Below the pieces are notes generated by a model. That model made no database searches. It worked only from the letters and a program-made list of their open reading frames with translations, and was not told the origin of the DNA. Position numbers and translations under genes: made by a program. DNA of 35,020 bases from positions 1-35,020 of the forward strand of contig JAUXCL010000003.1 in the NCBI GenBank assembly GCA_030618905.1, given 5' to 3'. Shown piece after piece: positions 19,384 to 31,895 of the stretch. Source of the DNA: Bacteroidales bacterium. Lineage in GTDB: Bacteria > Bacteroidota > Bacteroidia > Bacteroidales > B18-G4. The first letter of the stretch is position 1. Every line of letters starts with the position of its first letter.

Positions 19384-19518
19384 AATAATTATATATCTAA
19401 ATAATTTAAAAACACAATTTTACAAAATTTTATCGTTAGTCAGATAAAAATAATGCTTTTTAAATCAGTTAAAAAAGCCGTGAAAATCATATTTTTGACT
19501 GATCTAATACAGGTATTT

Positions 19519-20859
19519 ATGTTATTTACCAAATTATCAGGATTGAGAGCAATTCATACATATTTCATCTGCATATTAATTGCCCTGTCCTCCTCTTTGG
19601 TCGTTTTTTCACAGGACACTGAAGATCAGGATTATTTCAAGGAATTATTTATCCGAAACGAAGATTTTATTTATAAACCAAACATCAAAACGGTCTTACT
19701 GTACAAGGCCGGATGGGAAATGTCGCAACCAATCATCCAATTGAACACCGATGATAAAATGATCCTGACTTTTGATGATCTTGATGCTGACGACAAATAT
19801 TTTGGATATACCATTATCCACTGCAATGCCAACTGGCAGGAATCGGAGCTTAAGCAAAATGAATATATTGATGGATATTATGAGGATGAGATCTGGGATT
19901 ACGCCTTTTCATACAACACCACCAAAGCCTATACGAATTACAGGATTGAATTACCAACTGATTATTTACGCTTAACCAAATCCGGTAATTATATCCTGCG
20001 TGTTTATGAAGATGAAAATAAAGATGAAAATGTGATCTTCACCAGGCGTTTCATGGTCCTGGATCCAAAAGTCAGTGTTAATGCCAGGGTAAATCCAACG
20101 TCCAATGTTGCCGACAGGCAGACCAAACAAGCGGTAGACTTTACCATTTACAAGAACAATTACCTCATCCCCTTTCCATTTGAAAAGCTTAAAGTAGTAA
20201 TTACACAGAACCGGCGATGGGACAATGCCATCACAGACCTTAAACCCAGGCTGGTGAGTTACGACAAGTTAAGCTATGATTATGATGATGGTAATGTCTT
20301 TGACGGGGGCAATGAATTTCGGCATTTGGACATTAAAAGTACGATCTACCAAACTGAAAATATGAAGAACAAGTTCTACGACGCCACCGGTTATCATGTC
20401 TTTCTTTTAGCGGATGAGCGCAGGACTTTCGACAGGTATACTTTCCAGGAAGACCTGAACGGCAAATTGTACATAGAGGCTGAGAACGCCGGAGATGCCA
20501 ATATTGAAGGTGATTATATTTTTATACATTTCAAGTTTCCTTATAAAGTTCCCCTGGTTAATGGCAATCTCTACATTATGGGGGCCTTGACGAACTGGCA
20601 ATTCACGGAGGAAGGACGGCTAACCTATAACTTCCAGGAAAAGGCCTATGAAACCATCATGTACCTCAAACAGGGATACTACAACTATGTGTATGTCTTT
20701 CTCGAAGATGGGTATCCGGGAGCAGATATTACCTTAATGGAAGGTAATCATTGGGACACTGAAAATGATTATACCATTTTCGTTTACCACCGTGAAGAAG
20801 GGACTTATTATGATCAGTTGATCGGATTACAGTTCCTGAATTCCCTTTACAAGGATTGA
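19519..20859 (+). CDS. DUF5103 domain protein (type IX secretion system plug-like)
   Basis: Signal-like N-terminus; L.FDDL, Y.IIHCNANW, LTKSGNY, FDGGNEFR..D, LKQGYYNY.Y, EGNHWDTENDY. Divergent from nqrA. Start uncertain (19453 or 19519). Confidence 0.78.
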   Translation: MLFTKLSGLRAIHTYFICILIALSSSLVVFSQDTEDQDYFKELFIRNEDFIYKPNIKTVLLYKAGWEMSQPIIQLNTDDKMILTFDDLDADDKYFGYTIIHCNANWQESELKQNEYIDGYYEDEIWDYAFSYNTTKAYTNYRIELPTDYLRLTKSGNYILRVYEDENKDENVIFTRRFMVLDPKVSVNARVNPTSNVADRQTKQAVDFTIYKNNYLIPFPFEKLKVVITQNRRWDNAITDLKPRLVSYDKLSYDYDDGNVFDGGNEFRHLDIKSTIYQTENMKNKFYDATGYHVFLLADERRTFDRYTFQEDLNGKLYIEAENAGDANIEGDYIFIHFKFPYKVPLVNGNLYIMGALTNWQFTEEGRLTYNFQEKAYETIMYLKQGYYNYVYVFLEDGYPGADITLMEGNHWDTENDYTIFVYHREEGTYYDQLIGLQFLNSLYKD

Positions 20860-22101
20860 TTATTCGTAACGCAGGGATTCAATAGGATCCAGTTTGGCTG
20901 CTTTGGCAGCAGGCAGAATTCCGGACAGCAGGGCAACAATAAAGCATAGAACGACACCCAGGATGATCCATGCCCAGGGTACAATAAATGCACTTCCGAT
21001 AATCAGGGACAATAAATTCCCTATTCCAATCCCCAGGACGATGCCAACGATTCCGCCCAGTTGTGCAATGACCACGGATTCTATCAGGAATTGATTCCGG
21101 ATACTGATTCTGTTAGCTCCAATCGCCTTTCGAATCCCAATCTCCCGGGTTCTTTCCGTAACAGAAACCAGCATGATATTCATCAGTCCGATGGCTGCAC
21201 CCAATAAGGTGATCAAGCCAATCAGCGTAGCCCCTATCCTGATGTATTTCAGAAAATCTATTAACATTTCGGCTATGGAATCACTTTTTACCATACTGAA
21301 AGTATCTTCCTCCGTGACCGGTACATTTCTGATGATCCTGAAAAGCCCGGTAGCTTCACCAATGGCAGCATCCAGATCTTCAGCTTTGATGGCCATGACA
21401 TTAACGGAATAATTCATATTGGGCCGTGGAAAATATTGCCGTACATTGGTAATGGGCACTACACATCGCCGGTCGCCGGCAAACCCGATACCTGACCCCT
21501 TTTCCTTCATCACCCCGATTACCCGGTACTTACCCGGGCCAATTGAAATGACCTTGCCAATGGGATCTTCATTTGCCTTAAAAAGCTTATTGGCGATCTG
21601 ACTTCCAAGGATAACCACATGATTCCCATATTGTATTTCCGTGTCGGAGAAATTACGTCCTTTAGCAAGCTCAAAACCACTGGTCACCATATAATTTTCA
21701 TCAGTGCCAACAACGCCAACATTGGGATCAGTTTTCTCAGATTTATATTTTGCAGTAGCAATCCCGGTACCCCAGATATAAACGGAAGTATAGGCAGGAA
21801 AATTAAAATTTTCCTTAAAGGTCATGGCCTGATCGAAGCTGATGCGTTCGTAATATTTAGGGCGGCTGGAATCATTACCGATATGAATACGTAAAGTACG
21901 GTTCCTGATGGTAAAAGTATTGGCACCCATCATGGCAAAATTTTGGTTCAGGTAATACTTAATAGAATCAATTGCAGTCAATATCCCAACAAGGGCCATG
22001 ATCCCAAAAGCAATGATCATCACTGTAAGAACCGTTCTCAGGAAATGTCCCCTGATGGATTCCAGTGATTGCCGTATATTTTCAAAGAGGAGTTTGTTCA
22101 T
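20860..22101 (-). CDS. ABC transporter permease, MacB/FtsX family (no ATPase gene in this window)
   Basis: RTVLT..IIAFGI.ALV, periplasmic domain with GRNF, GLMNIMLVSVTERTREIGIRKAIGA, QFLIES, PA.KAAKLDPIESLRYE. Confidence 0.92.
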   Translation of the reverse strand: MNKLLFENIRQSLESIRGHFLRTVLTVMIIAFGIMALVGILTAIDSIKYYLNQNFAMMGANTFTIRNRTLRIHIGNDSSRPKYYERISFDQAMTFKENFNFPAYTSVYIWGTGIATAKYKSEKTDPNVGVVGTDENYMVTSGFELAKGRNFSDTEIQYGNHVVILGSQIANKLFKANEDPIGKVISIGPGKYRVIGVMKEKGSGIGFAGDRRCVVPITNVRQYFPRPNMNYSVNVMAIKAEDLDAAIGEATGLFRIIRNVPVTEEDTFSMVKSDSIAEMLIDFLKYIRIGATLIGLITLLGAAIGLMNIMLVSVTERTREIGIRKAIGANRISIRNQFLIESVVIAQLGGIVGIVLGIGIGNLLSLIIGSAFIVPWAWIILGVVLCFIVALLSGILPAAKAAKLDPIESLRYE

Positions 22102-22139
22102 TAACTATAAGCGTTAGTCTGTACCTTTACCTGCTCATA

Positions 22140-22147
22140 CAAAGTTA
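22140..22147 (-). promoter_or_regulatory. -7 promoter box for the permease gene
   Basis: Minus strand TAACTTTG, about 39 nt upstream of the permease ATG; suggests it can be transcribed separately from the upstream cluster. Confidence 0.55.
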
Positions 22148-22160
22148 AGTATTTTCATAC

Positions 22161-23093
22161 TTACCTGAATTTCTTTATCATTTTAACTGCAGATTTCACC
22201 AGGCCCGGAAGATTATTCCGATGAATCCTCAAATAATGACATTCCGTGGAACCAAAACCTTTATAAAACCTGGCAAGGTCAGTATCGTTGGAGCCATCAA
22301 AATCAAAGACCAGGTGCTGGTGGGCATGATCTTGTATATAAGCATCTATGATCATAAACATTGCACTATGTTCCCTGCCTTTGGTGTCCAGGCCTGAAAA
22401 AAGGAATATGCTCTTTTTATTGCTGTGCACGAACACGGCCCCGGCACACAGTTCATTGTAATCGGTAAAAGCCCCGTAAATCTCTGCCAGGCCTTTATAA
22501 ATGCATACATAAATAAGCTTCCGGAGCATCATGTAGTCTTTATCTTTAAGATGTTGTATTTCACGACCCTTATTTTGCCGGAACATTTCAATCAGCACAT
22601 CGGGTTTTTGGTTTTTCATGATGGTCAGACCCGACTTTTGTGCTTTTTTTATGTTTCTCTTTGTATTCTGAGAATAATGCTTACTGATGTTATCGTAAGC
22701 ATTGATCAGATCGAGTTCATGATTCAACTGGGGTGTGACTTCAAATCCATCGGAATCAATTTTATTCAGTGTGTTTAAGTTTATCTCGATATACCTGTAT
22801 TTTTTCGGAATGGCTTGCAAAAAATTCTCCACCACTTCAGCCGAGAGGATGCTGCGGGAAAATATTCCAAGCTGTTGTGTGAAATAAGGCTGGAACAGGT
22901 AAGATATTCCGTATTTCTTTCTTCCGGTAAGTGGAAAAACCCTTTCGTAATCATTTTCTATCAGTGCTTCCCAGCCATCGCAAACGATGTCAAGATACCA
23001 GCTGTAGGCATAAATTATTCCATTGAAAGCCGAACGGATGCTCTTATCCCATCTGGTCTTATCAATTTCATCATTTTTAAGGTACTTGATCAT
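22161..23093 (-). CDS. GNAT-superfamily protein, FemAB/BioF2-like double-GNAT type
   Basis: 310 aa; IYAYSWYLD, QPYFTQQLG, YSQNTKRNIKKA, FDFDGSN..LARFYKGFG, resembling Fem-like acyltransferases of glycan loci. Confidence 0.7.
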   Translation of the reverse strand: MIKYLKNDEIDKTRWDKSIRSAFNGIIYAYSWYLDIVCDGWEALIENDYERVFPLTGRKKYGISYLFQPYFTQQLGIFSRSILSAEVVENFLQAIPKKYRYIEINLNTLNKIDSDGFEVTPQLNHELDLINAYDNISKHYSQNTKRNIKKAQKSGLTIMKNQKPDVLIEMFRQNKGREIQHLKDKDYMMLRKLIYVCIYKGLAEIYGAFTDYNELCAGAVFVHSNKKSIFLFSGLDTKGREHSAMFMIIDAYIQDHAHQHLVFDFDGSNDTDLARFYKGFGSTECHYLRIHRNNLPGLVKSAVKMIKKFR

Positions 23094-24385
23094 TGAACTG
23101 CTTCTTTGATGATCTCTATAAAAGCATGGTGTTTGGCTTCATCATCCGACAGGGCATAATTATGCCAGATTCCAATCAATTCACCATTAACCTGTTTTAC
23201 AGATTGGATCAGGGGTCTTACAAATTTAATATAATCTTCCGGTAAAACCTGCATATAATCACTTAAAGCAGAATCCATAAATGCAAAAGGATGGATCCTG
23301 ATGGGAAGTTCCTTGTCCTGAACCAGGTCATAAGCATTGAAAGGACTGCTGATACTGGCTCTGAATCCCAAACCGGAAGCATAGCCCATTGAATATTCCC
23401 CTTGTATATCCTGGTTCATGAGGCGGGAATAGCTCGCAGGCAAATCAAGCATCAGGAAATGCTGCCGGCTGATCACAACAGGTTTGCTAATGATGGTGCT
23501 TAATCTTTTGACTTCAGCATGGATCTTGTCCGGATCTTTGGAAGATCCATAAGATGGATGAATTCCAAGTTCTGCCCGGGTCGATAATTTTTTTAATAAT
23601 TTTCTAAAACGCGTATTACGGTACGAGCTATTTTTATCATAGGCACCATAATCACCGATCAACACAAAATAAAGCGGGTGCAAATTATACTCATTAAAGA
23701 TATTCAGCTGCAAATCAAAATTATCAAAAGGATCATCCTGCATACCTGACAATACCCTGAGTTTTTCAATGCCTTCCTTGAAATTCAGTTTGAACAGCAA
23801 TTTGGCTAATCCCCCAAGAGATCTGATCAAGCCTTTCCCTTTGTGCGCAAAAGCCTGATCAATATCAACACTCGGTATAAATTTGTACTGCTGTTGAGGA
23901 AATTTAAATTCCGGATGATGAATCAGTAGCTGCTCCTTAATTTTCAAGGCCAGGATATTGATGAGGGGTTTGTCAAGAAACGCATTTTGACCTGCCAGGC
24001 TGTATTCCGGTATAAAACGGCCATGCCTGTCCCTTTCCCCGGGGATATATTCCTCATACCTTGAGGCCAGGTAAAAGGTCATCGCCAGTGGATCAAAAGG
24101 GAAAGGTAATACATTCTCCTGAATGAAAAATACGGGCAGGTCATTCCAGTTATCCACTGTGATGATTTGATTCTGGATATCACTCTCAAAGAGTATTTCA
24201 GCCGGCTTAAAGTGGATACCGCTACCCAGTGATGTCCCTGAATAATTAATTTTGAGTGCTGATGAGCTAATGTATTCCTCCAGGTTTGTGGTATAATGCA
24301 CCTCAACACCCAAAATGTCTGTAAAGATTATCCGGGAGGCATACCTGAGCCTGGGACTGTCTTTTTCACTGTATATCAGCACCAT
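23090..24385 (-). CDS. Polysaccharide deacetylase-like protein (DUF7033-type N-terminus + CE4/NodB-like domain), copy 1 with intact-looking motifs
   Basis: FYLASRYEEY, D.HGRF, SVDID, GIHPSY, RQHFL, YSMGY, GFRA, PFAFMD, IWHN. Confidence 0.75.
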   Translation of the reverse strand: MVLIYSEKDSPRLRYASRIIFTDILGVEVHYTTNLEEYISSSALKINYSGTSLGSGIHFKPAEILFESDIQNQIITVDNWNDLPVFFIQENVLPFPFDPLAMTFYLASRYEEYIPGERDRHGRFIPEYSLAGQNAFLDKPLINILALKIKEQLLIHHPEFKFPQQQYKFIPSVDIDQAFAHKGKGLIRSLGGLAKLLFKLNFKEGIEKLRVLSGMQDDPFDNFDLQLNIFNEYNLHPLYFVLIGDYGAYDKNSSYRNTRFRKLLKKLSTRAELGIHPSYGSSKDPDKIHAEVKRLSTIISKPVVISRQHFLMLDLPASYSRLMNQDIQGEYSMGYASGLGFRASISSPFNAYDLVQDKELPIRIHPFAFMDSALSDYMQVLPEDYIKFVRPLIQSVKQVNGELIGIWHNYALSDDEAKHHAFIEIIKEAVQ

Positions 24386-25232
24386 AATTAATCTTATCCT
24401 GTGTTGTTTTATACAAATTGAAAATCTGCAAAAATGATTTCAACTGATCCCGTAAATATAGCTTAGTATCGAAGCGGGCAATATTCATTGCATTATTTTG
24501 TGTGATGTCTTTGTGGATAATCTCGTGGGCATCAGCAATGCGCAGCATCGAAAATTCAACCTTGTTGATCACCTGCGTATTCAATATAGCAACTTCCAGT
24601 TTTTCCTGAAGTAATTCCAGGTTCATGGTCCAGCCATGGAGTTTTCGATAGAATAGCAATTTCTTCTCACCAGCTTGAGCACCGTCATTGTAATAACGTA
24701 TCAACAAGGGTTTGAAGTGCCTGTAAGGAACCTTATCCTGCTCTTCAACATAGTGTGTATATGTAAATGCTTCCGCAACATTGGTCCCGATAAACAGCAT
24801 TTTGGCATTCCATTCCAGGAACTTTGCAAATGGAGAATCGCTTCCAAAGGAGCTTTTATTTTGAAGGTTTTGCAGGGCCTCCGATTCCTTCCCCCATACC
24901 ATAAATGAATGCAGGGGATGCCAGGTTCTTTTAAAATCACCGCCCCGGAATGCAGCCAGTGCCATTGCCCCTGTTATAGGTTCAGTTTTTTTTACATCAA
25001 AGGTCTGGCCTGATCTAAGGTAAAAATTATAGGCCGGAAAGATCAGGGTTCCCTGAACCGTTAATTTGCGCTTAAAGCTATCAATTAAGGCATCAACATC
25101 AAAGGAGCGTTCATTCCGTTTAGCATTAAAGGCAAACCTGGTTATATCAGATGCGATGATCAGGACATCCGAGGCCTGGATATCCAGGTGATCAACAATT
25201 TCCTGATAAGGTATGTATGAAGTCGCTGTCAT
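24366..25232 (-). CDS. AAC(3)/YokD-family (Antibiotic_NAT) N-acyltransferase
   Basis: GTLIFPAYN, RTWHPLHSF, SFG.DSPF, LFIG, TYTHYVEE (His/Glu catalytic motif), VPYR. Confidence 0.82.
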   Translation of the reverse strand: MTATSYIPYQEIVDHLDIQASDVLIIASDITRFAFNAKRNERSFDVDALIDSFKRKLTVQGTLIFPAYNFYLRSGQTFDVKKTEPITGAMALAAFRGGDFKRTWHPLHSFMVWGKESEALQNLQNKSSFGSDSPFAKFLEWNAKMLFIGTNVAEAFTYTHYVEEQDKVPYRHFKPLLIRYYNDGAQAGEKKLLFYRKLHGWTMNLELLQEKLEVAILNTQVINKVEFSMLRIADAHEIIHKDITQNNAMNIARFDTKLYLRDQLKSFLQIFNLYKTTQDKINYGADIQ

Positions 25233-25258
25233 ATTTATAATAACCAGGGTTTGATGAA

Positions 25259-25738
25259 CTAGACCATTTTACGAAACTGTATTAACTCGTTTGCATAACC
25301 CATCTCCTTCCAGAAGTCAATGGCAGTTGTATTTTCTGATAAGGCCTGTAACTCAATGGAGTGGACTTGCTGTTCAATAAACCAGTGCTCAAGTTTTTCC
25401 AGCAATGCCTTAGCGATTTTTTGTTTCCGGTATTCCGGTCTGACATAGATATGGGTGACTACCCCAATCTTTTTATTTCCCAGGTAATCCGGTGCCATGC
25501 TCAAAGCGCCGTGTGCGAATGCAATCATATCACTACCATGGAAAGCAACCTCCACGGTTGTAAATCTTTTCAAGGTTCGTTTCAGGGAAAGCATCCATTT
25601 ATCAACGCCATCCTTTTCCAATTGCAGCATTAAGCCATATTCCTGCATATAAGTATACATTTCAGCAAAAAGCAGGGCTACCTGTTTCAGGTCCTGATCC
25701 TCCGGATCCTGAATCTGTTTATAATGGATCTTATTCAT
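25259..25738 (-). CDS. Small GNAT-family N-acyltransferase
   Basis: HIYVRPEYRKQKIAKALL (motif A), N..AIDFWKEMGY (motif B). Start at ATG 25738 overlaps the ACP stop by 8 nt. Confidence 0.85.
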   Translation of the reverse strand: MNKIHYKQIQDPEDQDLKQVALLFAEMYTYMQEYGLMLQLEKDGVDKWMLSLKRTLKRFTTVEVAFHGSDMIAFAHGALSMAPDYLGNKKIGVVTHIYVRPEYRKQKIAKALLEKLEHWFIEQQVHSIELQALSENTTAIDFWKEMGYANELIQFRKMV

Positions 25739-25994
25739 TTGATGCTTGCATAAATAAATCAATAATACCGGAAACTGTCGTAAGACCTTCTTCCTCCATG
25801 ATCTTTTCGAAATCGATTTCTACCTTTACTATTTCTTCCATAGCGCCGATCAGGTCGACAAAAGTCATAGAGTCAAGCAAACCGCTTCTGACCAGGTCAA
25901 AGTCCTGTTTGACTTCCCCAGGTTCAATCCCAAAACGGAGAAGCCGATCATCAATTAGTTGCAAAAGCAGTTTCTTTATTTCCTGCTCATTCAT
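25731..25994 (-). CDS. Acyl/aminoacyl carrier protein, DltC-like
   Basis: 87 aa acidic protein with DL..SGLLDSM (phosphopantetheine Ser42), closely matching the DltC-type GLLDSM motif; ATGA overlap with the adenylation gene. Confidence 0.88.
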   Translation of the reverse strand: MNEQEIKKLLLQLIDDRLLRFGIEPGEVKQDFDLVRSGLLDSMTFVDLIGAMEEIVKVEIDFEKIMEEEGLTTVSGIIDLFMQASNE

Positions 25995-27532
25995 AGGAGT
26001 TCAATCAGTTTATTTCGGTCTATCTTACCATTATCGTTCAAAGGCAAATGCGCTATCCGGATGATCTTCTGCGGAACCATATACCAAGGTAATTGTTTTC
26101 TGCAAATTTCGAGCAAGCGCTGCTCATTAAATTCTTCCTCATCGTTCTCCACAAATGAAACCAGGGATTGAGTGCCTGTACTTTGATCCTCGACAGCTAT
26201 GGTAGCCAGGTTATTGATTTTTCCGAGCTGCCGCAGCGTCTCGTCAATTTCCAACAGGTTGACCCGGTAACCACTGATCTTCACTTCCGCATCGGCCCTG
26301 CCGAGGAAGAAAAGATCATGGTCAGCATCTTCAAGCACAAGGTCTCCTGTATTATACCATGATATGTCACTTTTTGGATCCAGTTTCACAAAACTCATGG
26401 ATTCATCCTCCCGGGCCTGCAAATAGCCATCAATCACCTGTGTACCAGAAAGGTGCAACAATCCCTGTGATTTCGCTTCCAGGGCTTGTTTTTCATCATC
26501 CAGGATACGATATTGCTGATCTTTAAAGATCTTGCCGATGGAAACAATGCCATTCCCGGATTTGTTTTTATCAGGAGACTTCTGCCATTCGTAAGCTGCT
26601 ATGGCAATTGTCGTTTCTGTCGGACCGTACAAATTGATCAGCCTTGATGAAGGGGCAGCCTGTTGCCAGTGATGCGCCGTCTTTTCGAGTAAAGGTTCAC
26701 CGCAGAAGAAGCTCCATTTTAATGAAGGGAAAAAGGCCGGACGCAAGAGACGCATTTTATCCATCATGACAGCCATAGAAGGTACCGAGAACCATACAGT
26801 GATCTTGTGCTCATTGATGTATTTTGGGTATGCAAAAGGCTTATCGGCTGCAGGGACACAAAGGCATCCTCCGCTCAGCCAGCAGACAAATAAGTCATGC
26901 ACGCTAAGGTCAAAGGTCAGGTCAAATGTCTGTGAGAAGCGATCAGATTCATGAAATTTATACATCCCCATCAGGTTATCCAGGTAGGCAGTAACATTCC
27001 GGTTGCTGACCGGAACCCCTTTGGGCGCACCGCTTGTACCAGAGGTAAAAAGAAGGTATGCTGTCTGGTCTTTGGTCGATTGAATTTCGGGGACAATCCC
27101 GGCAGGTTCAATATAACCTGATTCCTTCAGATCAGGATTGATGATATTCAATGCGCCATTATGTTGTTGTATGATATCATCCATCAGGTCCAGTTGATCA
27201 TTGGCCACGATAATCGTGCCGGCTGCAGATCTTTGGATCATTTCCAGGTTCCTGTTCAGCGGAAAGCGTGGATTCAGGGGGAGGTAAGGCCGGGAAGCCA
27301 TTAAAGCGCCAAGAATGCCGGCATATGCTGTAATGCCTTTTGCTGCCAGGATGGCCACCGGGGATGATTCATCACTTATTGACATTATCCTGCGGGCAAT
27401 TCCGGCACTTAAGCTCAACAATGCTGAATAGGACCATACCTCTCCGCCAACTTCCAGGGCCGGATTTTCACTGTATATTTCGGCTGATGAAAGAAATCGA
27501 TGTATTAATATATGGGTGGTTCCCTGTTTCAA
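25991..27532 (-). CDS. Stand-alone amino-acid adenylation enzyme, DltA-like
   Basis: YLLFTSGTSGAPKGV, FDLSVHDL, WFSVPS, FFCGE, NLYGPTETT, YNTGD, GRAD..VKISGYRV, LPWYMVP, LPLNDNGKIDR; TTG start. Confidence 0.9.
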   Translation of the reverse strand: MKQGTTHILIHRFLSSAEIYSENPALEVGGEVWSYSALLSLSAGIARRIMSISDESSPVAILAAKGITAYAGILGALMASRPYLPLNPRFPLNRNLEMIQRSAAGTIIVANDQLDLMDDIIQQHNGALNIINPDLKESGYIEPAGIVPEIQSTKDQTAYLLFTSGTSGAPKGVPVSNRNVTAYLDNLMGMYKFHESDRFSQTFDLTFDLSVHDLFVCWLSGGCLCVPAADKPFAYPKYINEHKITVWFSVPSMAVMMDKMRLLRPAFFPSLKWSFFCGEPLLEKTAHHWQQAAPSSRLINLYGPTETTIAIAAYEWQKSPDKNKSGNGIVSIGKIFKDQQYRILDDEKQALEAKSQGLLHLSGTQVIDGYLQAREDESMSFVKLDPKSDISWYNTGDLVLEDADHDLFFLGRADAEVKISGYRVNLLEIDETLRQLGKINNLATIAVEDQSTGTQSLVSFVENDEEEFNEQRLLEICRKQLPWYMVPQKIIRIAHLPLNDNGKIDRNKLIELL

Positions 27533-27536
27533 TTCG

Positions 27537-28739
27537 TTAAGATTTCTTTAGGTTTTGTTCCAGGATCAGTGCATCCGCAAAATACTTTGTAGCCCAGTTT
27601 GGGAATGCAAATGGTTCATACTTTCCCCAGATCGGGAATGAACCGGGTATGGCCCCTTTGGTATTGTCAGAGCCACTTAGCTGCCGGTTCTGTATGTTGG
27701 CCAATAAAGTATTCATGCCCAGGGCCGCATCAAAGAATTGTTGATCGCCGGTCAGCACAAATAGTTTTTGCCAGATGATGCTCATTTGGGCACAGCCTGT
27801 AAGGATCATGTATTCACTACCTGCCCAATTGGCGTCATACCTGCCATGCAATTTACCATCCCTTATAAAAATATCCCTCAACCTGATGGCAGGTTGGAGT
27901 GCCGCTTGTTTATATTTATCATTTCCCAGGTGAATTCCTGAATCCAAAAGCCCATCGATAGTATAAGCAATGGTATGGAGGATTGGTCTGTCGTTATGCT
28001 TGATCGTGTTGTCACAATCCTCAAACCAGGCATTAGCATGTTGCTTGTGATCAACGACCCAATCCAGGTTCTTAATGGCATGTTGAGCATATTTCTTATC
28101 CTGGGTATGATCGGAAAGCATCAACAGGGGTGCATCCACGTATGTGTCATATACCCGCTCATTTTCCATCAAAGCATGCATTTTCCAATATCCCTGTTTG
28201 GATTGAACCTGGCAAAGCCAGTCGCCAGCCTTTGTTGCAGCTTTAAGAAACCTGTCATCCTGTGTATGTGCATATGCTGCCAGCATCCCCCTTATGACCT
28301 GCCCTGTATTAAACACAATTTCAGGTTTCTGCTCACTCACCCTTCCCCCCTGCCATCCTCCGGATTCCTTTTGGATAGAGAGCAACCATTCAGCGACTTT
28401 TAGGGCTGTTTGGATACTTTCATCATTACCTGTAAGTCCTCCATAAACCATCAATGTAGGGATGATGTACCCGGATGTTTCCGGATATGAAGAAGACCAG
28501 CCGTCTACCAGGTGATATGAGCCCATGCCATCATCACTCATATTTTTTTGTGCAATCATCAACCATCGAATCGCATCGTCAAGGGCCTGGCTTTTATCCA
28601 TCTTTTTGTGAGACCCGGGCTTAATGAAATTACCTTTTTGGAAATACAGGCGTTTTACATCGAGCACAGCGATATTCCGCTCTTTCCGGAAAGCAAGGGA
28701 ACTGATGTTTTTGGTATATAAATAGAGGCTGTTGAGCAT
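27537..28739 (-). CDS. (alpha/alpha)6-barrel protein (prenyltransferase/squalene-cyclase-like repeats or six-hairpin glycosidase-like), function unknown
   Basis: Repeated QW-like motifs (WLMIAQ, WLLSIQ..SGGW, WLCQVQ..QGYW, WV..KQ..NAWF) plus SYPETSGYIIPT, FNTGQV, HTIAY, NWATKYFADAL. Confidence 0.6.
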   Translation of the reverse strand: MLNSLYLYTKNISSLAFRKERNIAVLDVKRLYFQKGNFIKPGSHKKMDKSQALDDAIRWLMIAQKNMSDDGMGSYHLVDGWSSSYPETSGYIIPTLMVYGGLTGNDESIQTALKVAEWLLSIQKESGGWQGGRVSEQKPEIVFNTGQVIRGMLAAYAHTQDDRFLKAATKAGDWLCQVQSKQGYWKMHALMENERVYDTYVDAPLLMLSDHTQDKKYAQHAIKNLDWVVDHKQHANAWFEDCDNTIKHNDRPILHTIAYTIDGLLDSGIHLGNDKYKQAALQPAIRLRDIFIRDGKLHGRYDANWAGSEYMILTGCAQMSIIWQKLFVLTGDQQFFDAALGMNTLLANIQNRQLSGSDNTKGAIPGSFPIWGKYEPFAFPNWATKYFADALILEQNLKKS

Positions 28740-28762
28740 TTACAGTAGCTTAATATGGAACA

Positions 28763-30055
28763 TCATGTCAGGATCATTTGTATCATCTTTTCATAGAAAG
28801 TCAATCCGAAAGGTGCGCCCGGGTTTTTGATTAATGCATCATTGCTCCACATACTGATAAGGGTTGCATTTACCTTCTTTACTTCATCGCGTATTTGTCT
28901 GAATTGCTCCATAGGAGAAATGTCGCTTTGGATATCGACATCCAGGATGGCAAAAGGATGAATGCGAAGCTTGGTCTCCACATCCAGGTCCAGGTCATAA
29001 AAGTTAAATGCATTGCTGATGCCTGCCCTGAACCCGGGATGGTTGACATAACCCATTGAATAATCATCACTGATATCAAGGTTAACCATGTTCCTGTATG
29101 TGACCGGCATATTCAATACCAGGAAGTGCTGCCTGATTTTAGAAATCTCCCTGTTCAATACTTTTGAGAGCCGGTTAAGTTCTATTTGCAATAAATCAGG
29201 ATCACGGATGGATGAGAATGAAGAATGCAGGCCTACTTTACAATAATCAGCCAGGGATTTGATCAGCACCTGGAAGCGCCGGCTGTTTACACTTATATTC
29301 TTGTCATTATGGCCATAGTCGGCAAAAAGGATAAAATAGATGGTTTTCAGGTCATATTTTTTTTGCAGCTCCAGTTGATCCTTATAAGTATCAATCGGAT
29401 CGGGATGTGTGCCCATGATGACTTTTGTCCGTTGCAGCATTCCGCCAAAATCAAGGTCACCCACTGATTTAAGATAACCACCAATAGTCCGTACCAGGCC
29501 TTTGGACCTCATTGCATAAGCTGCATTGATATCTATGGATGGGATGAATTGAAATCGTTGTTCAGGCATTTTCATGCCTGGAAATTGCTTAAGCAACAAT
29601 GATTTGATCTGTTGCGCCCAGATATTGACGATGGGTTTGTGCAGGAAGCCATTTTTAAACGCCAGGCTGTCCTTTGCCTGAAATCTTCCATGTTCATCTT
29701 TGACATAGGGGAGATATTCTTCATAGCGGGTAATCAGGTAAAACGCGGCAGCAAAAGGGTCAAAAGGCATCGCCGAAACATGGTCATAAACCGGGAAGAA
29801 AGCCGGGTTGCCTTCATCATCAATAACAACTATTTCCTGCCCGCCAATGCCCCGCTCATGCAACAAGTTTTCGCTATGAAAGAATATACCCTTTTCAAGC
29901 GTTGTGGTGGAATAATTTATGGCAGGTCCTTCATAAGCCAAATATTCTTCAGTGTTTTCCGTGAAGGCATATTCCACATCCAGGATATCACTAAAAAACA
30001 CTTTAAAAATATACTTAATCCGGTTGCAAAGTTTAGGAGTGTATATCAGCAGCAT
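28763..30055 (-). CDS. Polysaccharide deacetylase-like protein (DUF7033-type), copy 2 with degenerate motifs
   Basis: Co-linear with 23090-24385 (FYLITRYEEY, DEHGRF, RQHFL, YSMGY, GFRAG, RIHPF) but has SIDIN, GLHSSF and MWSN at the motif positions. Confidence 0.75.
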   Translation of the reverse strand: MLLIYTPKLCNRIKYIFKVFFSDILDVEYAFTENTEEYLAYEGPAINYSTTTLEKGIFFHSENLLHERGIGGQEIVVIDDEGNPAFFPVYDHVSAMPFDPFAAAFYLITRYEEYLPYVKDEHGRFQAKDSLAFKNGFLHKPIVNIWAQQIKSLLLKQFPGMKMPEQRFQFIPSIDINAAYAMRSKGLVRTIGGYLKSVGDLDFGGMLQRTKVIMGTHPDPIDTYKDQLELQKKYDLKTIYFILFADYGHNDKNISVNSRRFQVLIKSLADYCKVGLHSSFSSIRDPDLLQIELNRLSKVLNREISKIRQHFLVLNMPVTYRNMVNLDISDDYSMGYVNHPGFRAGISNAFNFYDLDLDVETKLRIHPFAILDVDIQSDISPMEQFRQIRDEVKKVNATLISMWSNDALIKNPGAPFGLTFYEKMIQMILT

Positions 30056-30062
30056 AACACAA

Positions 30063-30070
30063 CAAATATA
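30063..30070 (-). promoter_or_regulatory. -7 promoter box heading the 8-gene minus-strand cluster
   Basis: Minus strand TATATTTG followed by 7 nt and then the ATG at 30055. Confidence 0.6.
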
Positions 30071-30128
30071 CGATAAAAAATCAGGGTGATAATTTAGCAG
30101 AATGCCATGTCACATTTTAAAAGTTTAG

Positions 30129-30136
30129 TACTTTTG
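30129..30136 (+). promoter_or_regulatory. -7 promoter box for dnaX
   Basis: TACTTTTG ending 35 nt before the dnaX ATG. Confidence 0.6.
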
Positions 30137-30170
30137 ATGTGCATATCTACTAATTACTGAACCCAATTCC

Positions 30171-31895
30171 ATGGAAAATTTTATTGTTTCGGCAAGGAAA
30201 TACAGGCCAATGACTTTCAATACGGTAATTGGTCAGCCTTCTATCACAGCAACCCTTAAAAATGCCATTAAAAACCAGCAGATCGCACAGGCCTTTCTTT
30301 TTTGCGGTCCCAGGGGGGTTGGCAAAACGACCTGTGCAAGGATCCTGGCCAAAACGATCAACTGTACGAATGTTACTGCGGATACTGAGCCTTGCAATGA
30401 ATGTGAATCTTGTTTGTCGTTTAACAGTTCCGCTTCATTCAATGTCCATGAGCTGGATGCTGCATCCAATAATTCGGTGGATGATATCAGGACCCTGGTA
30501 GATCAGGTCAGGATACCACCGCAGGCCGGTCAGTACAAAGTATATATCATTGATGAGGTCCATATGCTTAGCGCCCAGGCATTCAATGCTTTCCTGAAGA
30601 CACTGGAAGAACCTCCGGCTTATGTCAAGTTTATCCTGGCTACAACAGAAAAGCACAAGATCATACCCACCATACTTTCCCGATGCCAGGTTTTTGATTT
30701 CAAAAGGATAAACGTAGAAGACATTGCCAATCATTTAAAATTTGTTGCAAGCAACGAAGGTGTCGATGCAAGCGAGGATGCTTTGCATATAATTGCTCAA
30801 AAAGCGGATGGTGCCCTTCGGGATGCTTTATCCATTTTTGATCAGCTTGTCAGTTTTTCCGGTGACACACTAAGCTATGAAACTGTCATTCAAAACCTGA
30901 ATATCCTTGATTATGATTATTTTTTCAGGATCACGGATTCCATCCTTCAAGGTCAGATACCAGAGACCCTGGTTACAATCAACGAAATCATTGACAATGG
31001 TTTTGAAGGTCAGCATTTCATTATTGGGATGGGTGAGCACCTGCGCAACCTGCTCGTGTGCCGCGACAAATCCACTGTTAAACTGTTGGAGGTCAGTCCC
31101 GGTCTCAAAGACAAATACCTCGGGCAATCATCTCGTTGTGCAGATCATTTTCTATTTAAAGCGCTGGAAATCAATAACCAATGTGATATTGACTACAAAA
31201 GCAGCAACAATAAAAATCTGCATTTAGAGATTGCGCTATTGCAGATGTGTGCTTTATCAGGTATTAAAGTTCATCCTGAAAAAAAAACGCCTGATCTCCC
31301 CACTCCGGCAGTAAAGATTAAACCGGGTATTGTTCCCACAGGAAAGCAAGCCAATGTAGTTGAGGAGCCCCCGCCAGCACCGGTTCCCAGTGCTGCGACG
31401 AAAGTACCTAAAGCTGGAAAAAAAGTACCCGGCACTTATTCTATCAAACAGGCCGTAAACGGAAAAGAGGATTCAACTGAAAAAGAAGAAATCCCCGAAC
31501 AGTTAAATGGCATGCAAGAGCGTCCTGAGGAATCATTTGAACAGCAAGACCTGGAAAAAGCCTGGCTCCTGTTTACAGAGTCGGTACATAAAGACTCGCC
31601 TAACTTATACAGTACCTTAACCAGGAGAAAGCCTCAGCTCAAAGAAGAATACCTGGTTGTACTGGAAATTGACAACAAAGTTCAGGAAAGAGAAATCCGC
31701 GAAAGAAGAGCAGATATTCATGATTTCCTGCGAGAAGAGTTAAAAAATTTCAAGTTAAGATTAGAAACCAGCATCCTTGAAAACAAAGAAGAATCCAAGG
31801 CCTATTTCCCTGAAGAGATATACCAGAAAATGGCTGAAAAGAATCCCAACCTTAAGAAATTGAAGGATCAGCTGGATATGGAAATCGATCAATAA
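30171..31895 (+). CDS. dnaX: DNA polymerase III subunit gamma/tau
   Basis: ARKYRP, GPRGVGKTT, Zn module C..PCNECESC, ELDAAS, IIDEVHML, NAFLKTLEEPP, TILSRC, GALRDALS; Pro/Ala-rich linker and C-terminal tau domain. Confidence 0.97.
   Translation: MENFIVSARKYRPMTFNTVIGQPSITATLKNAIKNQQIAQAFLFCGPRGVGKTTCARILAKTINCTNVTADTEPCNECESCLSFNSSASFNVHELDAASNNSVDDIRTLVDQVRIPPQAGQYKVYIIDEVHMLSAQAFNAFLKTLEEPPAYVKFILATTEKHKIIPTILSRCQVFDFKRINVEDIANHLKFVASNEGVDASEDALHIIAQKADGALRDALSIFDQLVSFSGDTLSYETVIQNLNILDYDYFFRITDSILQGQIPETLVTINEIIDNGFEGQHFIIGMGEHLRNLLVCRDKSTVKLLEVSPGLKDKYLGQSSRCADHFLFKALEINNQCDIDYKSSNNKNLHLEIALLQMCALSGIKVHPEKKTPDLPTPAVKIKPGIVPTGKQANVVEEPPPAPVPSAATKVPKAGKKVPGTYSIKQAVNGKEDSTEKEEIPEQLNGMQERPEESFEQQDLEKAWLLFTESVHKDSPNLYSTLTRRKPQLKEEYLVVLEIDNKVQEREIRERRADIHDFLREELKNFKLRLETSILENKEESKAYFPEEIYQKMAEKNPNLKKLKDQLDMEIDQ
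31279..31287 (+). other. A9 slippage/frameshift site in dnaX
   Basis: GAA AAA AAA ACG at codons 370-373; stops follow in both shifted frames (TGA 31292-31294, TAA 31312-31314). Confidence 0.7.

Follow-up and report, generated by a model that had tools for sequence, protein, structure and literature searches.

How could an amino acid loaded onto a small carrier protein reach its acceptor when the genes for the DltA- and DltC-like proteins are not accompanied by the usual Dlt partners? This question is raised by an operon in a 35,020-nucleotide stretch of a Bacteroidales genome (contig JAUXCL010000003.1; hereafter the window), where the ORF listing places eight consecutive open reading frames on the minus strand at 22161-30055. 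The original prediction had read the operon as a deacetylate-then-aminoacylate pathway, and both the ORF listing and the Pfam families agree with the eight co-oriented genes in the order it gave. What it missed was that the outermost genes are, by their sequences, paralogs of VimE and VimA, and that the locus is a composite, with a mobile cassette inserted between the members of a widespread backbone pair. The features are as follows:

30063..30070, minus strand: promoter-box candidate, TATATTTG, Bacteroidota -7-like, ending 7 nt 5' of the first ATG
28763..30055, minus strand: g1, 430 aa, DUF7033/VimE-like CE4-type de-N-acetylase of the backbone paralog clade
27537..28739, minus strand: g2, 400 aa, uncharacterized (alpha/alpha)6-barrel protein with a sugar-epimerase or hydrolase-like fold
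25991..27532, minus strand: g3, 513 aa, TTG start, stand-alone amino-acid adenylation enzyme, DltA/AlmE/VinM-like
25731..25994, minus strand: g4, 87 aa, acyl/peptidyl carrier protein
25259..25738, minus strand: g5, small GNAT N-acetyltransferase, 159 aa from the ATG at 25738
24366..25232, minus strand: g6, 288 aa, PF02522 (Antibiotic_NAT, AAC(3)-fold) protein
23090..24385, minus strand: g7, 431 aa, DUF7033/VimE-like de-N-acetylase of the cassette-associated clade
22161..23093, minus strand: g8, 310 aa, FemAB/Acetyltransf_6, VimA-like putative aminoacyl transferase, backbone partner of DUF7033
20860..22101, minus strand: FtsX/MacB-type permease, 59 nt 3' of g8, a member of the conserved backbone
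19453..20859, plus strand: type IX secretion plug, convergent with the permease, its position kept in backbone loci

The four overlaps noted earlier could all be read directly in the sequence: ATGA joins g3 to g4 (25991-25994) and g7 to g8 (23090-23093), g4 and g5 share ATGAATAA (25731-25738), and g6 and g7 share 20 nt (24366-24385). An alternative TTG start would extend g5 to 167 aa (25259-25762). The -7 box is present as described, but the motif TANNTTTG is no commoner in the window than chance would give (35 copies versus 32.0 +/- 5.7 expected; at least 35 in 28 of 100 shuffles), and the box at 30063-30070 alone is therefore not evidence of a promoter. Because the permease (MacB_PCD 128.7 and FtsX 79.3 bits in Pfam) is a co-oriented ninth gene only 59 nt on, with another TAACTTTG within that gap, the operon's 3' boundary is provisional. 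In backbone loci the permease gene comes after the Fem-like gene, and the plug protein scores 399.2 bits with the NCBIfam T9SS_plug model (cut-off 100). The arrangement is far beyond chance; the co-occurrence check found it again in dozens of metagenome contigs and in no fewer than five further GTDB families.

g1 matches DUF7033 in Pfam (122.4 bits), as does g7 (96.6 bits), and the two are 42% identical. g8 matches FemAB (28.4 bits) and Acetyltransf_6 (22.2 bits) and aligns over residues 16-304 with the recA-adjacent gene at the vimA position (25% identity, E 4e-23), a reference gene set in the context recA-X-VimE-GT4 whose VimE scores above the model cut-off. On these similarities, we conclude that g1 and g8 are a paralogous counterpart of the VimE/VimA pair of the Wbp/Vim pathway of Porphyromonas gingivalis and Tannerella forsythia. 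In Veith 2020 (PMC7468200), VimE is the deacetylase, VimA the aminoacyl transferase, and VimF the glycosyltransferase; the proposal there is that VimE deacetylates and VimA then transfers Ser or Gly, with VimA determining the incoming amino acid and the product serving as the anchoring sugar for type IX secretion cargo. The operon shares with that system the adjoining of a DUF7033/CE4-type de-N-acetylase and a FemAB/Acetyltransf_6 transferase, the predicted logic of taking N-acetyl off and putting a small amino acid on, and a Bacteroidales host with a type IX secretion system (T9SS). It differs in that g1 and g7 fall far below the NCBIfam VimE cut-off (127.5 and 128.4 versus 440 bits), in the low identity of g8 to the vimA-position gene, in having neither a VimF-type glycosyltransferase nor recA linkage, and in its extra deacetylase and A-domain/ACP/GNAT/PF02522 cassette, which are absent from the Vim locus. 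The plug gene is not adjacent at true VimE loci. The original prediction did not recognize the combination as a described system; given the paralogy of g1 and g8, the deacetylate-then-aminoacylate scheme had already been published for Wbp/Vim (PMC7468200), and the Fem-like enzyme, offered earlier as a transferase of ACP cargo, need not use ACP. Residue 177 of g1 is Asn at a position occupied by Asp in 45 of 49 relatives (DIN replaces the DID motif), and g1 may be impaired by this change.

The composite nature of the locus is evident from loci that hold one part or both. In other families, the Bacteroidales backbone runs dnaX, pair, FtsX, T9SS plug, nqr, and six loci from five families (L183-L188) keep the pair in this same backbone with no cassette; a Fem-like gene adjoins DUF7033 without a cassette at these loci and at L041, L044, L046, and L048. 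The g1 clade (nine rows, SH-aLRT 100) includes the pair-only loci L048, L187, and L188. The five-gene cassette A/ACP/GNAT/PF02522/DUF7033 occurs without the backbone at L010, L011, and L015, and cassette plus pair are retained together in families f1, f85, f126, and f95.

Within the cassette, g3 contains AMP-binding (194.5 bits) and AMP-binding_C (29.7 bits) domains and resembles DltA over its full length (TIGR01734, 250.6 bits; cut-off 559.85); it scores 297.6 bits with TIGR01733 (cut-off 317.4). Its best PDB matches are 8k4r (1.1e-78), 6akd (7.9e-69), 4oxi (8.7e-64), which is AlmE (PMC11253843), and DltA 3e7w (6.7e-51), and the solved enzymes nearest to it use Gly, L-Ala, L-Ser, or D-Ala. 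Pocket residues D208, L209, C277, and K503 belong to a code, D-L-H-S-(F/L/M)-C-L-(I/V)-A-K, common to 20 of the 22 A-domains from cassettes; one further A-domain has near variants of it. The pocket Asp/Leu/Cys is retained as in the Gly enzyme AlmE and the D-Ala enzyme DltA, and the D208 to C277 spacing (+69) equals that of AlmE D247/C316. The predicted role of g3 is thus the loading of a small alpha-amino acid, probably of the Gly or Ala class, onto g4, a PP-binding protein (21.4 bits; Pfam cut-off 20.8) whose phosphopantetheine Ser42, within LLDSM, is invariant in 19 of 19 orthologs. g5 is an Acetyltransf_1 protein (53.3 bits), and such a GNAT accompanies 40 of 44 A-type cassettes versus none of the eight FkbH-type cassettes. 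The g2-type gene accompanies both types alike. Pfam matches of g2 are weak and to (alpha/alpha)6 families (GH127 37.9, GH88 26.6 bits), and its predicted structure (pLDDT 88.9) finds GH88 3wiw (E 9.4e-9, TM 0.71) and AGE-family 2-epimerases (TM 0.63-0.70) among the best Foldseek matches, at 10-15% identity. The g7 clade has 21 rows, 19 of them directly 3' of PF02522; g7 itself matches the family at 30 of the 31 columns conserved to 90% or more and departs from it at Glu330, an Asp in the family.

What is new at this locus is the tie of the PF02522 clade to carrier modules. g6 matches Antibiotic_NAT/PF02522 at 81.7 bits, its model (pLDDT 92.2) matches the AAC(3)/YokD/BA2930/FrbF fold (E about 1e-15, TM 0.65-0.70), and the His-Glu pair conserved in those proteins is present as H160 and E163, both unchanged in all 25 sequences. 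We surveyed 102 non-identical PF02522 loci, whose counts are not independent because the loci come mostly from related genomes. Upstream of PF02522, 44 have an A-domain and ACP and eight have FkbH, six of the latter with ACP; an ACP match lies upstream in 50 of the 69 loci with at least 1000 nt of upstream sequence, and small ORFs of the FkbH cassettes resemble ACP (hhalign probability 94.4%). Downstream, the next gene is DUF7033 in 35 of 38 A-type loci having at least 900 nt. The clade adjoins ACPs and three kinds of ACP-loading enzyme (A-domain, FkbH, and KASIII), as in the orders NeuB-ACP-KASIII-SDR-KASIII-PF02522 (L174) and Glyoxalase-FkbH-like-ACP-methyltransferase-PF02522 (L095), and in the metagenomic loci L178 and L179 AMP-binding and PF02522 are fused in one 759-aa protein, with an ACP-like ORF carrying a DSM motif before it. 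Of 51 metagenome loci for which upstream sequence was available, 11 showed no carrier module with our own HMMs; Pfam found one in some of these 11, the scan being negative at L165, L166, and L173. The remoter PF02522 relatives are found in loci for sugar biosynthesis, alongside DegT, NeuB, cytidylyltransferase, epimerase, and glycosyltransferase genes. The adjacency to three kinds of carrier module, together with the fusion, leads us to propose that g6 is an (amino)acyl-ACP:amino-sugar N-acyltransferase. Like AAC(3), FrbF, YokD, and BA2930, it would N-acylate an amine on a sugar-like acceptor. Unlike them, its clade is chromosomal, in glycan loci, and linked or fused to carrier-loading enzymes; the known members act on antibiotics or a phosphonate, and the solved PF02522 enzymes are acetyl-CoA users, which counts against an ACP-dependent g6.

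We therefore lean, at slightly better than an even chance, toward an operon that exchanges the N-acetyl groups of a surface amino sugar for small amino acids, one of them delivered from a carrier by a relative of AAC(3). Comparative evidence (the PF02522-ACP ties, the DUF7033 linkage, and the A-domain pocket) favors this part of the original prediction. The sequences and structure models show the gene content, homologies, and folds, the retention of catalytic residues, and a conserved, modular locus; we infer the catalytic steps, their order, the acceptor, the amino acid, and the cellular role as follows. Glycan precursors would be tailored in the cytoplasm by two modules, each a deacetylase plus an N-acyltransferase, so that other acyl groups replace N-acetyl on the amino sugar. 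In the module of g1 and g8, the DUF7033 protein would free an amine to which the FemAB-type g8 adds an amino acid, presumably from aminoacyl-tRNA. In the inserted module (g3-g7), g3 would activate a Gly- or Ala-class amino acid and load g4, g7 would expose a second sugar amine, and g6 would move the ACP-bound group onto it; g5 probably N-acetylates the amino group of the carrier-loaded amino acid, and g2 probably epimerizes or otherwise handles the sugar. The product would be an N-aminoacylated sugar, perhaps N-acylated twice, in LPS or some other surface glycan, and the operon would extend a pathway already described in gum-disease bacteria. The operon of most families has a single DUF7033 gene, yet two candidate transferases and the GNAT, so the two-module arithmetic fits the window's family only. 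Carrier-protein-dependent N-acylation is known elsewhere, in the attachment of tetronate to perosamine for the O1 antigen of V. cholerae (wbeK-O) and in butirosin side-chain transfer (BtrH/BtrI/BtrJ), by transferases that are not known to belong to PF02522. There, as proposed here, a dedicated carrier bears the acyl group while it is built or activated, and the group then passes to a sugar amine; unlike the operon, these routes are not known to include a deacetylase step or a FemAB partner. PMC3441752 assigns wbeL and the downstream genes to tetronate synthesis.

The carrier-bound amino acid could be used instead by g8 or g5, with g6 an ordinary acetyl-CoA N-acetyltransferase that re-acetylates or caps the amine. 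g8 is VimA-like, and VimA sets the incoming amino acid (PMC7468200); the GNAT strictly tracks the A-domain; and structures matching the g6 fold include entries bound to AcCoA or CoA. We consider this unlikely: of the 33 loci with 2600 nt or more of downstream sequence, seven have no Fem-like gene after the cassette (Fem-less cassettes include L010, L110, and L129-L132), FkbH and KASIII ACP modules occur with PF02522 and with neither GNAT nor Fem, and the fusion to an AMP-ligase argues against a plain acetyl-CoA enzyme. It is similarly improbable that pair (g1, g8) and cassette (g2-g7) are functionally separate, the cassette having landed here by chance and decorating some different glycan, for example a capsule or O-antigen sugar. 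Each does occur alone, the cassette in unrelated contexts (GAPDH ... Tex at L010, L011, and L015) and the pair at the six loci above, and ordinary polysaccharide loci hold the distant PF02522 relatives. Against this, cassette and pair stay together across four families, a Fem-like gene lies directly 3' of PF02522 in varied contexts (L141, L146/L147, L159), and at L019 an FkbH-type cassette is combined with DUF7033 and Fem, which suggests that both transferases share one substrate.

A Dlt- or Alm-like envelope system, in which the loaded carrier would supply D-Ala or Gly either to a lipid A acyltransferase or to an exporter of MBOAT/DltD type encoded at another locus, is highly unlikely. The likeness to DltABCD (teichoic acid D-alanylation) lies in the stand-alone adenylation enzyme, small carrier, and Asp-Leu...Cys pocket, and that to V. 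cholerae AlmEFG (lipid A glycylation) in the Gram-negative host, AlmE-like A-domain, and carrier protein. Pfam and NCBIfam scans, as originally predicted, found MBOAT, DltD, condensation, thioesterase, or glycosyltransferase domains in none of the eight genes, but two MBOAT genes do lie elsewhere in the genome; one is paired with an AlgX-type SGNH protein, typical of O-acetylation. DltD was not found in this genome and gave a 23.9-bit match in just one of five genomes, MBOAT occurred in none of the Pfam-scanned cassette neighborhoods, the DltA and DltC equivalog cut-offs were missed, and the transferase candidates always lie within the cassette itself. The host is diderm, and the predicted bond is an amide to an amine acceptor rather than a linkage to a hydroxyl on an extracytoplasmic polymer. 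Unlike AlmEFG, no gene of the eight has an AlmG-type lipid A acyltransferase domain in Pfam, and the cassette goes instead with a sugar deacetylase and a protein of the AAC(3) fold. A small-molecule cluster for an aminoglycoside- or amino-sugar-like compound, with g6 and the GNAT as self-resistance or tailoring acetyltransferases, would fit the solved enzymes nearest g3, VinM and IdnL7 of macrolactam antibiotic pathways, and the best-known role of PF02522, aminoglycoside resistance (PMC8956665). It is very unlikely, as the operon lacks genes for sugar formation, for glycosyltransferases, for PKS/NRPS condensation, and for export, occupies a fixed core-genome site between dnaX and nqr in several families, and encodes a g6 that scores 34.7 bits with the NCBIfam AAC(3) equivalog (cut-off 270).

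For the preferred exchange of N-acetyl for amino acids, we infer that the acceptor could be the attachment sugar for type IX secretion cargo. Of the order's 301 genomes, 277 have plug genes, so co-occurrence of operon and T9SS says nothing. Five operon-bearing genomes, searched for the Wbp pathway, speak against the link: just one of them (G328) has a Wbp-like gene set, and a TviB-like dehydrogenase turned up in three but not in the genome of the window itself (82% complete). Capping of the amino acid by the GNAT would block its use as an attachment point for T9SS cargo, which also counts against a T9SS role.

The window is contig C26 of its own genome (GCA_030618905.1; 2.32 Mb, 245 contigs, 82% complete), and an ORF listing recovered eight consecutive minus-strand reading frames at exactly the predicted coordinates, the best starts being an ATG at 25738 for the fifth gene and a TTG for the third. 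All four predicted junction overlaps (two ATGA, one of 8 nt, and one of 20 nt) can be read in the sequence. Annotation with Pfam and NCBIfam upheld the families assigned to the eight genes, and likewise the absence from them of MBOAT, DltD, condensation, thioesterase, and glycosyltransferase domains.

Genes of the operon and -7-like motifs at its ends
30063-30070, -7 box TATATTTG
28763-30055, minus strand, g1, deacetylase-like gene (DUF7033)
27537-28739, minus strand, g2, (alpha/alpha)6 barrel
25991-27532, minus strand, g3, adenylation enzyme (A-domain)
25731-25994, minus strand, g4, acyl carrier protein (ACP)
25259-25738, minus strand, g5, small GNAT
24366-25232, minus strand, g6, AAC(3)-like gene (PF02522)
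23090-24385, minus strand, g7, deacetylase-like gene (DUF7033)
22161-23093, minus strand, g8, FemAB/Acetyltransf_6 (Fem-like) gene
22140-22147, minus strand, second -7-like motif TAACTTTG, in the 59-nt gap ahead of the FtsX-type permease

The -7 box predicted ahead of the operon is present, but the window holds no excess of its motif (35 occurrences versus 32.0 ± 5.7 expected). An FtsX/MacB-type permease lies 59 nt downstream of the operon and may have its own promoter, since the second motif sits in the gap before it. Beyond the permease come a convergent gene of the T9SS plug family (399 bits versus a cut-off of 100, NCBIfam) and then the nqr operon, while dnaX lies upstream of the operon. 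Scans for sigma-70 promoters and terminators, with models that are ill-suited to Bacteroidota, gave counts at or below those of shuffled sequence. No RNA runs covering window positions 22000-30200 were listed; the 20 DNA runs that contain the region are labelled as sediment or cold-seep metagenomes.

The deacetylase-like and Fem-like genes bear an apparent likeness to VimE and VimA, which the original prediction overlooked. In the passages of PMC7468200 that set out the Wbp/Vim pathway, VimE is proposed to strip the 2-N-acetyl group from di-N-acetyl glucuronic acid, the FemAB-like VimA to add Ser or Gly after this step, and the product to be the "linking sugar" for attachment of T9SS cargo. 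The predicted scheme of deacetylation followed by aminoacylation is therefore a published one. What stands of the claim that the system is not a described one is the combination of such genes with an A-domain/ACP/GNAT/PF02522 cassette, for which we found no description in the titles, abstracts, and some passages of the literature searched; vim neighbourhoods such as those in supplementary Fig. S7 of PMC7468200 could show related loci. Searching for DUF7033 by name returned no literature.

Both deacetylase-like proteins belong to DUF7033 (Pfam, 122.4 bits for g1 and 96.6 for g7), and their scores for the VimE equivalog NF053580 are 127.5 and 128.4 bits (cut-off 440). DUF7033 matches are near-universal in Bacteroidales (E ≤ 1e-10 in 233 of 301 sampled genomes), with matches above the VimE cut-off in six of the 301. 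The g8 protein, which is encoded beside a deacetylase, matches FemAB (28.4 bits) and Acetyltransf_6 (22.2 bits). Over residues 16-304 it is 25% identical (E 4e-23) to a recA-adjacent gene upstream of a true VimE, the comparison partner being the gene in the vimA position rather than a named P. gingivalis VimA. Four above-cut-off VimE loci were fetched, and two of them show the published order of recA, an Acetyltransf_6/FemAB gene, VimE, and GT4 genes; GT4 genes lie 3′ of VimE in three loci (L033, L034, and L035). A VimF-type GT4 is missing from the operon, whose eight genes all lack a glycosyltransferase domain. Because the VimE matches are below the cut-off and g8 is only 25% identical to its counterpart, we regard g1 or g7 together with g8 as a pair of VimE/VimA type that is not orthologous to the named one.

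The two DUF7033 proteins of the operon are 42% identical. Across 31 columns with at least 90% conservation, which include the Asp, His, and Arg residues of the CE4-like part, each deviates once: g7 has Glu330 in place of Asp, and g1 has Asn in place of Asp at position 177. Residue 177 of g1 (window 28763-30055) lies within a D-x-D motif and is Asp in 45 of 49 relatives; the change to Asn is common to g1 and three of its five orthologues (L006, L042, and L086). This substitution suggests altered or lost catalysis in the g1 paralogue.

As predicted, the genes co-occur elsewhere. The full operon order recurs in loci L005-L009, L012-L014, L042, and L081-L089 and on many metagenome contigs. Close g6 orthologues (E < 1e-50) were found in 16 of 401 sampled Bacteroidales genomes, spread over six GTDB families, and any g6 match at E ≤ 1e-8 in 29 of the 401. 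Scanning species-representative genomes with a pattern yielded 17 loci, every one from a Bacteroidota MAG according to its title, and scanning metagenomes yielded 240 relatives, from which we retained 80 loci.

Comparison of these loci separates g1 and g8 from the genes between them. Six loci of five further families (L183-L188) have dnaX, DUF7033-Fem, FtsX, plug, and nqrA with the DUF7033 and Fem-like genes directly adjacent; the contig of a seventh, L182 of genome G024, stops at the DUF7033 gene, so this locus was left out of the tally. Among 20 DUF7033 loci fetched from the top of the match list, a non-random set, a g8-like gene lies within about 1.5 kb in 10. Conversely, the A-domain, ACP, GNAT, PF02522, and DUF7033 genes occur alone amid unrelated genes in three loci (L010, L011, and L015), and most families that bear the cassette retain just the g7-type deacetylase. 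In a quick IQ-TREE of 56 DUF7033 proteins, one clade of nine joins six g1 orthologues with three proteins of pair-only loci (SH-aLRT 100), another of 21 holds 19 proteins encoded directly after PF02522 together with that of L186 and the truncated one of L182, and a clade of five holds proteins of stand-alone or FkbH cassettes. The simplest reading places the cassette g2-g7 inside a resident pair, between its two genes, although the tree leaves the direction of events unproven. The backbone of dnaX, DUF7033-Fem, FtsX-type permease, T9SS plug, and nqrA (window 18034-31895) is itself kept across several GTDB families, with or without the cassette.

Within the cassette, g6 matches Antibiotic_NAT (PF02522) at 81.7 bits versus a cut-off of 25 and scores 34.7 against the cut-off of 270 for the NCBIfam AAC(3) equivalog NF033082. 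All the Foldseek matches listed for its structural model (pLDDT 92.2) are AAC(3), YokD, BA2930, or FrbF (E about 1e-15 to 1e-13, TM 0.63-0.70, 13-21% identity). The AAC(3) fold is known from antibiotic resistance and from one phosphonate pathway, and AAC(3) enzymes use a catalytic His/Glu pair. Both H160 and E163 of g6 are fully conserved (25 of 25 aligned relatives), and the titles of the matched structures show that His mutants were studied in BA2930 and AAC(3)-IVa.

For neighbourhood counts we annotated 114 PF02522 loci with HMMs from our own alignments, leaving 102 after identical copies were dropped; Pfam scans of neighbours covered selected ORFs (46 of 50; 53 of 60 plus 5 others; 42 of 87 plus one other). 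An A-domain and ACP lie upstream on the same strand in 44 of the 102, and 40 of these 44 also have a GNAT. An FkbH-like gene lies upstream in a further type of locus (8/102), of which six have an ACP hit, five a glyoxalase-type gene, and none a GNAT; small ORFs in these FkbH cassettes align to the ACP family (hhalign probability 94.4%, E 9e-8). Where at least 1000 nt of upstream sequence was available, an ACP hit was found upstream in 50 of 69 loci; a Pfam scan showed no carrier gene in three PF02522 loci (L165, L166, and L173). The arrangements vary: Glyoxalase_4, FkbH-like, PP-binding ACP, methyltransferase, PF02522, UDP-GlcNAc 2-epimerase, and GT1 in L095; NeuB, PP-binding ACP, KASIII, SDR, KASIII, PF02522, and DUF4910 in L174; a PseB-like dehydratase, cytidylyltransferase, DUF4910, PF02522, an ACP-like ORF, and SDRs in L148; and, with the genes arranged differently, PF02522, GNAT, A-domain, and ACP in L094.

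A natural fusion also came from the metagenome scan. A 759-aa protein (L178:5483-7762; the same protein in L179) joins AMP-binding and AMP-binding_C domains to a PF02522 part with 34% identity to g6 (E 5e-44). The amino-acid FDxS motif is absent from the ligase part; an 88-aa ACP-like ORF with a DSM motif and an asparagine-synthase-like gene precede the fusion gene, and a gene for a YfhO-family membrane protein follows. Longer g6 homologues from the homologue search comprised two PF02522-DUF4910 fusions and no A-domain fusion. Since PF02522 accompanies three carrier-loading types and is fused to one of them, a g6-type transferase most likely takes its acyl group from a carrier, an argument from gene context in loci that are partly interrelated. 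We therefore propose g6 as a candidate acyl-ACP-dependent N-acyltransferase on the basis of genomic association and the fusion. A predicted complex of g6 with the carrier g4 scored 0.17 against a mark of 0.32, an outcome that speaks neither for binding nor against it. No carrier-protein use by PF02522/Antibiotic_NAT appeared, by title or abstract, in the literature searched, and the main text of a family-wide PF02522 paper has no mention of "carrier protein" or "polysaccharide" (PMC8956665, main text).

PF02522 repeatedly adjoins, or is fused to, DUF4910/DUF2172/HTH_47 proteins (L171:6998-9046, L174, L148, L144, L091-L093, P0001, and P0002), in loci that carry NeuB, cytidylyltransferase, and DegT genes, as in clusters for nonulosonic-acid-type sugars. 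A further variant, L146:2354-9622, has ACP, FkbH, Glyoxalase_4 on the opposite strand, a TylF-type O-methyltransferase, PF02522, a Fem-like gene, and an enoyl-CoA hydratase, pairing PF02522 with the Fem-like gene in a locus without any DUF7033. PF02522 lies directly before a Fem-like gene in other contexts (L141, L146/L147, and L159), and this recurrence suggests that the two transferases share a substrate.

The predicted loading enzyme g3 resembles those for small amino acids. Ser42 of g4 is invariant in 19 of 19 orthologues. The best solved relatives of g3 are 8k4r (VinM-VinL), LgrA, 6akd (IdnL7; Gly, L-Ala, L-Ser), 4oxi (AlmE; Gly), and DltA (D-Ala). With the ten specificity positions placed from GrsA motifs rather than by a tool alignment, the code of g3 would read D-L-H-S-F-C-L-I-A-K and is the same or nearly so in 21 of 22 cassette A-domains. 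D208, L209, and C277 of g3 equal D247, L248, and C316 of AlmE in identity and spacing and also match D197, L198, and C269 of DltA, so the substrate is likely a small alpha-amino acid; the predicted pocket does not distinguish Gly from D- or L-Ala. Residues 203-216 of g3 (window 25991-27532) contain a doubled FDL motif, FDLTFDLS, whose upstream copy is common to VinM (8k4r), where a HMMER alignment places Cys at the canonical Asp235 position. An (alpha/alpha)6 barrel is modelled for g2 (pLDDT 88.9); its nearest structures, GH88 hydrolases and AGE-family sugar 2-epimerases, share 10-15% identity with it, and its atlas neighbours are unnamed. Sequence searches of the PDB with g5 and g8 gave zero matches.

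Together these assignments outline a putative pathway. A small amino acid would be loaded on g4 by g3, and g7 would take the N-acetyl group off an amino sugar, whose freed amine would receive the carrier-bound group from g6. The amino group of the added residue would then probably be acetylated by g5, which is exclusive to A-domain cassettes. An exchange of the VimE/VimA type by g1 and g8 might follow, with a second amine or the first amino acid as its site, and g2 would act on the sugar.

The loaded carrier might instead serve a Dlt- or Alm-type exporter encoded elsewhere, as the genome does hold two MBOAT genes on other contigs. One of them, however, has an AlgX-type protein as its partner, no DltD turned up in this genome, and the cassette always has transferase candidates of its own. 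The operon itself lacks both DltB (an MBOAT) and DltD; g3 and g4 reach neither Dlt equivalog (DltA TIGR01734, 250.6 versus 559.85; DltC NF003464, 21 versus 68), and an AlmG-type lipid A acyltransferase domain is found in none of the eight genes. Within the operon, the carrier could feed g8 or g5 rather than g6, against which stand the seven of 33 cassettes that are Fem-less and the existence of carrier-linked PF02522 genes without a GNAT. Transfer by g6 remains our preferred reading. A small-molecule cluster is unlikely because of the gene content and the core-genome position; unlike an NRPS, the operon has just A and carrier domains, on separate proteins, and no condensation or thioesterase domain.

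As for the acceptor, the genome encodes three DegT-type aminotransferases: a WecE-type dTDP-4-amino-4,6-dideoxygalactose transaminase (533 bits versus a cut-off of 375), a PseC-like transaminase adjoining a small phosphoglycosyl transferase, and a DegT gene beside GalE- and RmlB-like genes. In another operon-bearing genome, G328, a locus with DegT, hexapeptide acetyltransferase, GFO/IDH/MocA, UDP-GlcNAc 6-dehydrogenase, and GalE genes (L191, G328:C72:43000-53000) resembles a complete Wbp set; its counterpart here (L097) has the DegT and GalE genes only. A TviB-like (UDP-GlcNAc 6-)dehydrogenase was found in three of five operon-bearing genomes and not in this one, which is 82% complete.

A tie of the operon to type IX secretion is, in our judgement, rather doubtful. 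The homology to the Vim pair points toward it, as does the position two genes from the plug, which is kept in at least 10 families at loci with and without the cassette. According to sections of PMC11969387, several T9SS linking-sugar pathways may exist, and P. intermedia, where VimA and VimE are absent, has an N-alanyl deoxyhexose linking sugar whose route of synthesis is unknown. Against the tie, the plug family occurs in 277 of 301 Bacteroidales genomes, which, with DUF7033 as widespread as it is (233/301), makes co-occurrence uninformative. True VimE loci do not lie near the plug gene, the shared gene order of relatives may reflect inheritance and not selection, and a capping GNAT would block cargo attachment. 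The plug lies within the fetched stretch in one of 20 DUF7033 loci, the operon-bearing L042.

Joined together, these parts would make the PF02522 clade a group of unrecognised (amino)acyl-ACP-dependent amino-sugar N-acyltransferases, housekeeping relatives of AAC(3) in modular load/deacetylate/re-acylate cassettes, acting here with a VimE/VimA-like pair that builds a T9SS-anchoring amino-acid sugar; we consider this joint reading unlikely. Were it true, the AAC(3) fold would gain a native function, moving carrier-bound acyl or aminoacyl groups onto amino sugars, which would bear on the origin of the resistance enzymes. There would be a concrete, testable gene set for the N-aminoacyl sugars of Bacteroidota surface glycans, and the VimE/VimA-type pair would not be peculiar to oral pathogens: in several families it holds a fixed place near the T9SS plug and can take extra acylation cassettes. 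The joint reading would also fill a gap, the synthesis of N-alanyl or N-glycyl linking sugars, which part of PMC11969387 describes as unknown.

Elsewhere in the same genome, one of the two MBOAT genes (L180, G000:C225:1328-5828) is followed by one for a 369-aa protein without a Pfam match and then by one for a protein with a T9SS C-terminal sorting domain.
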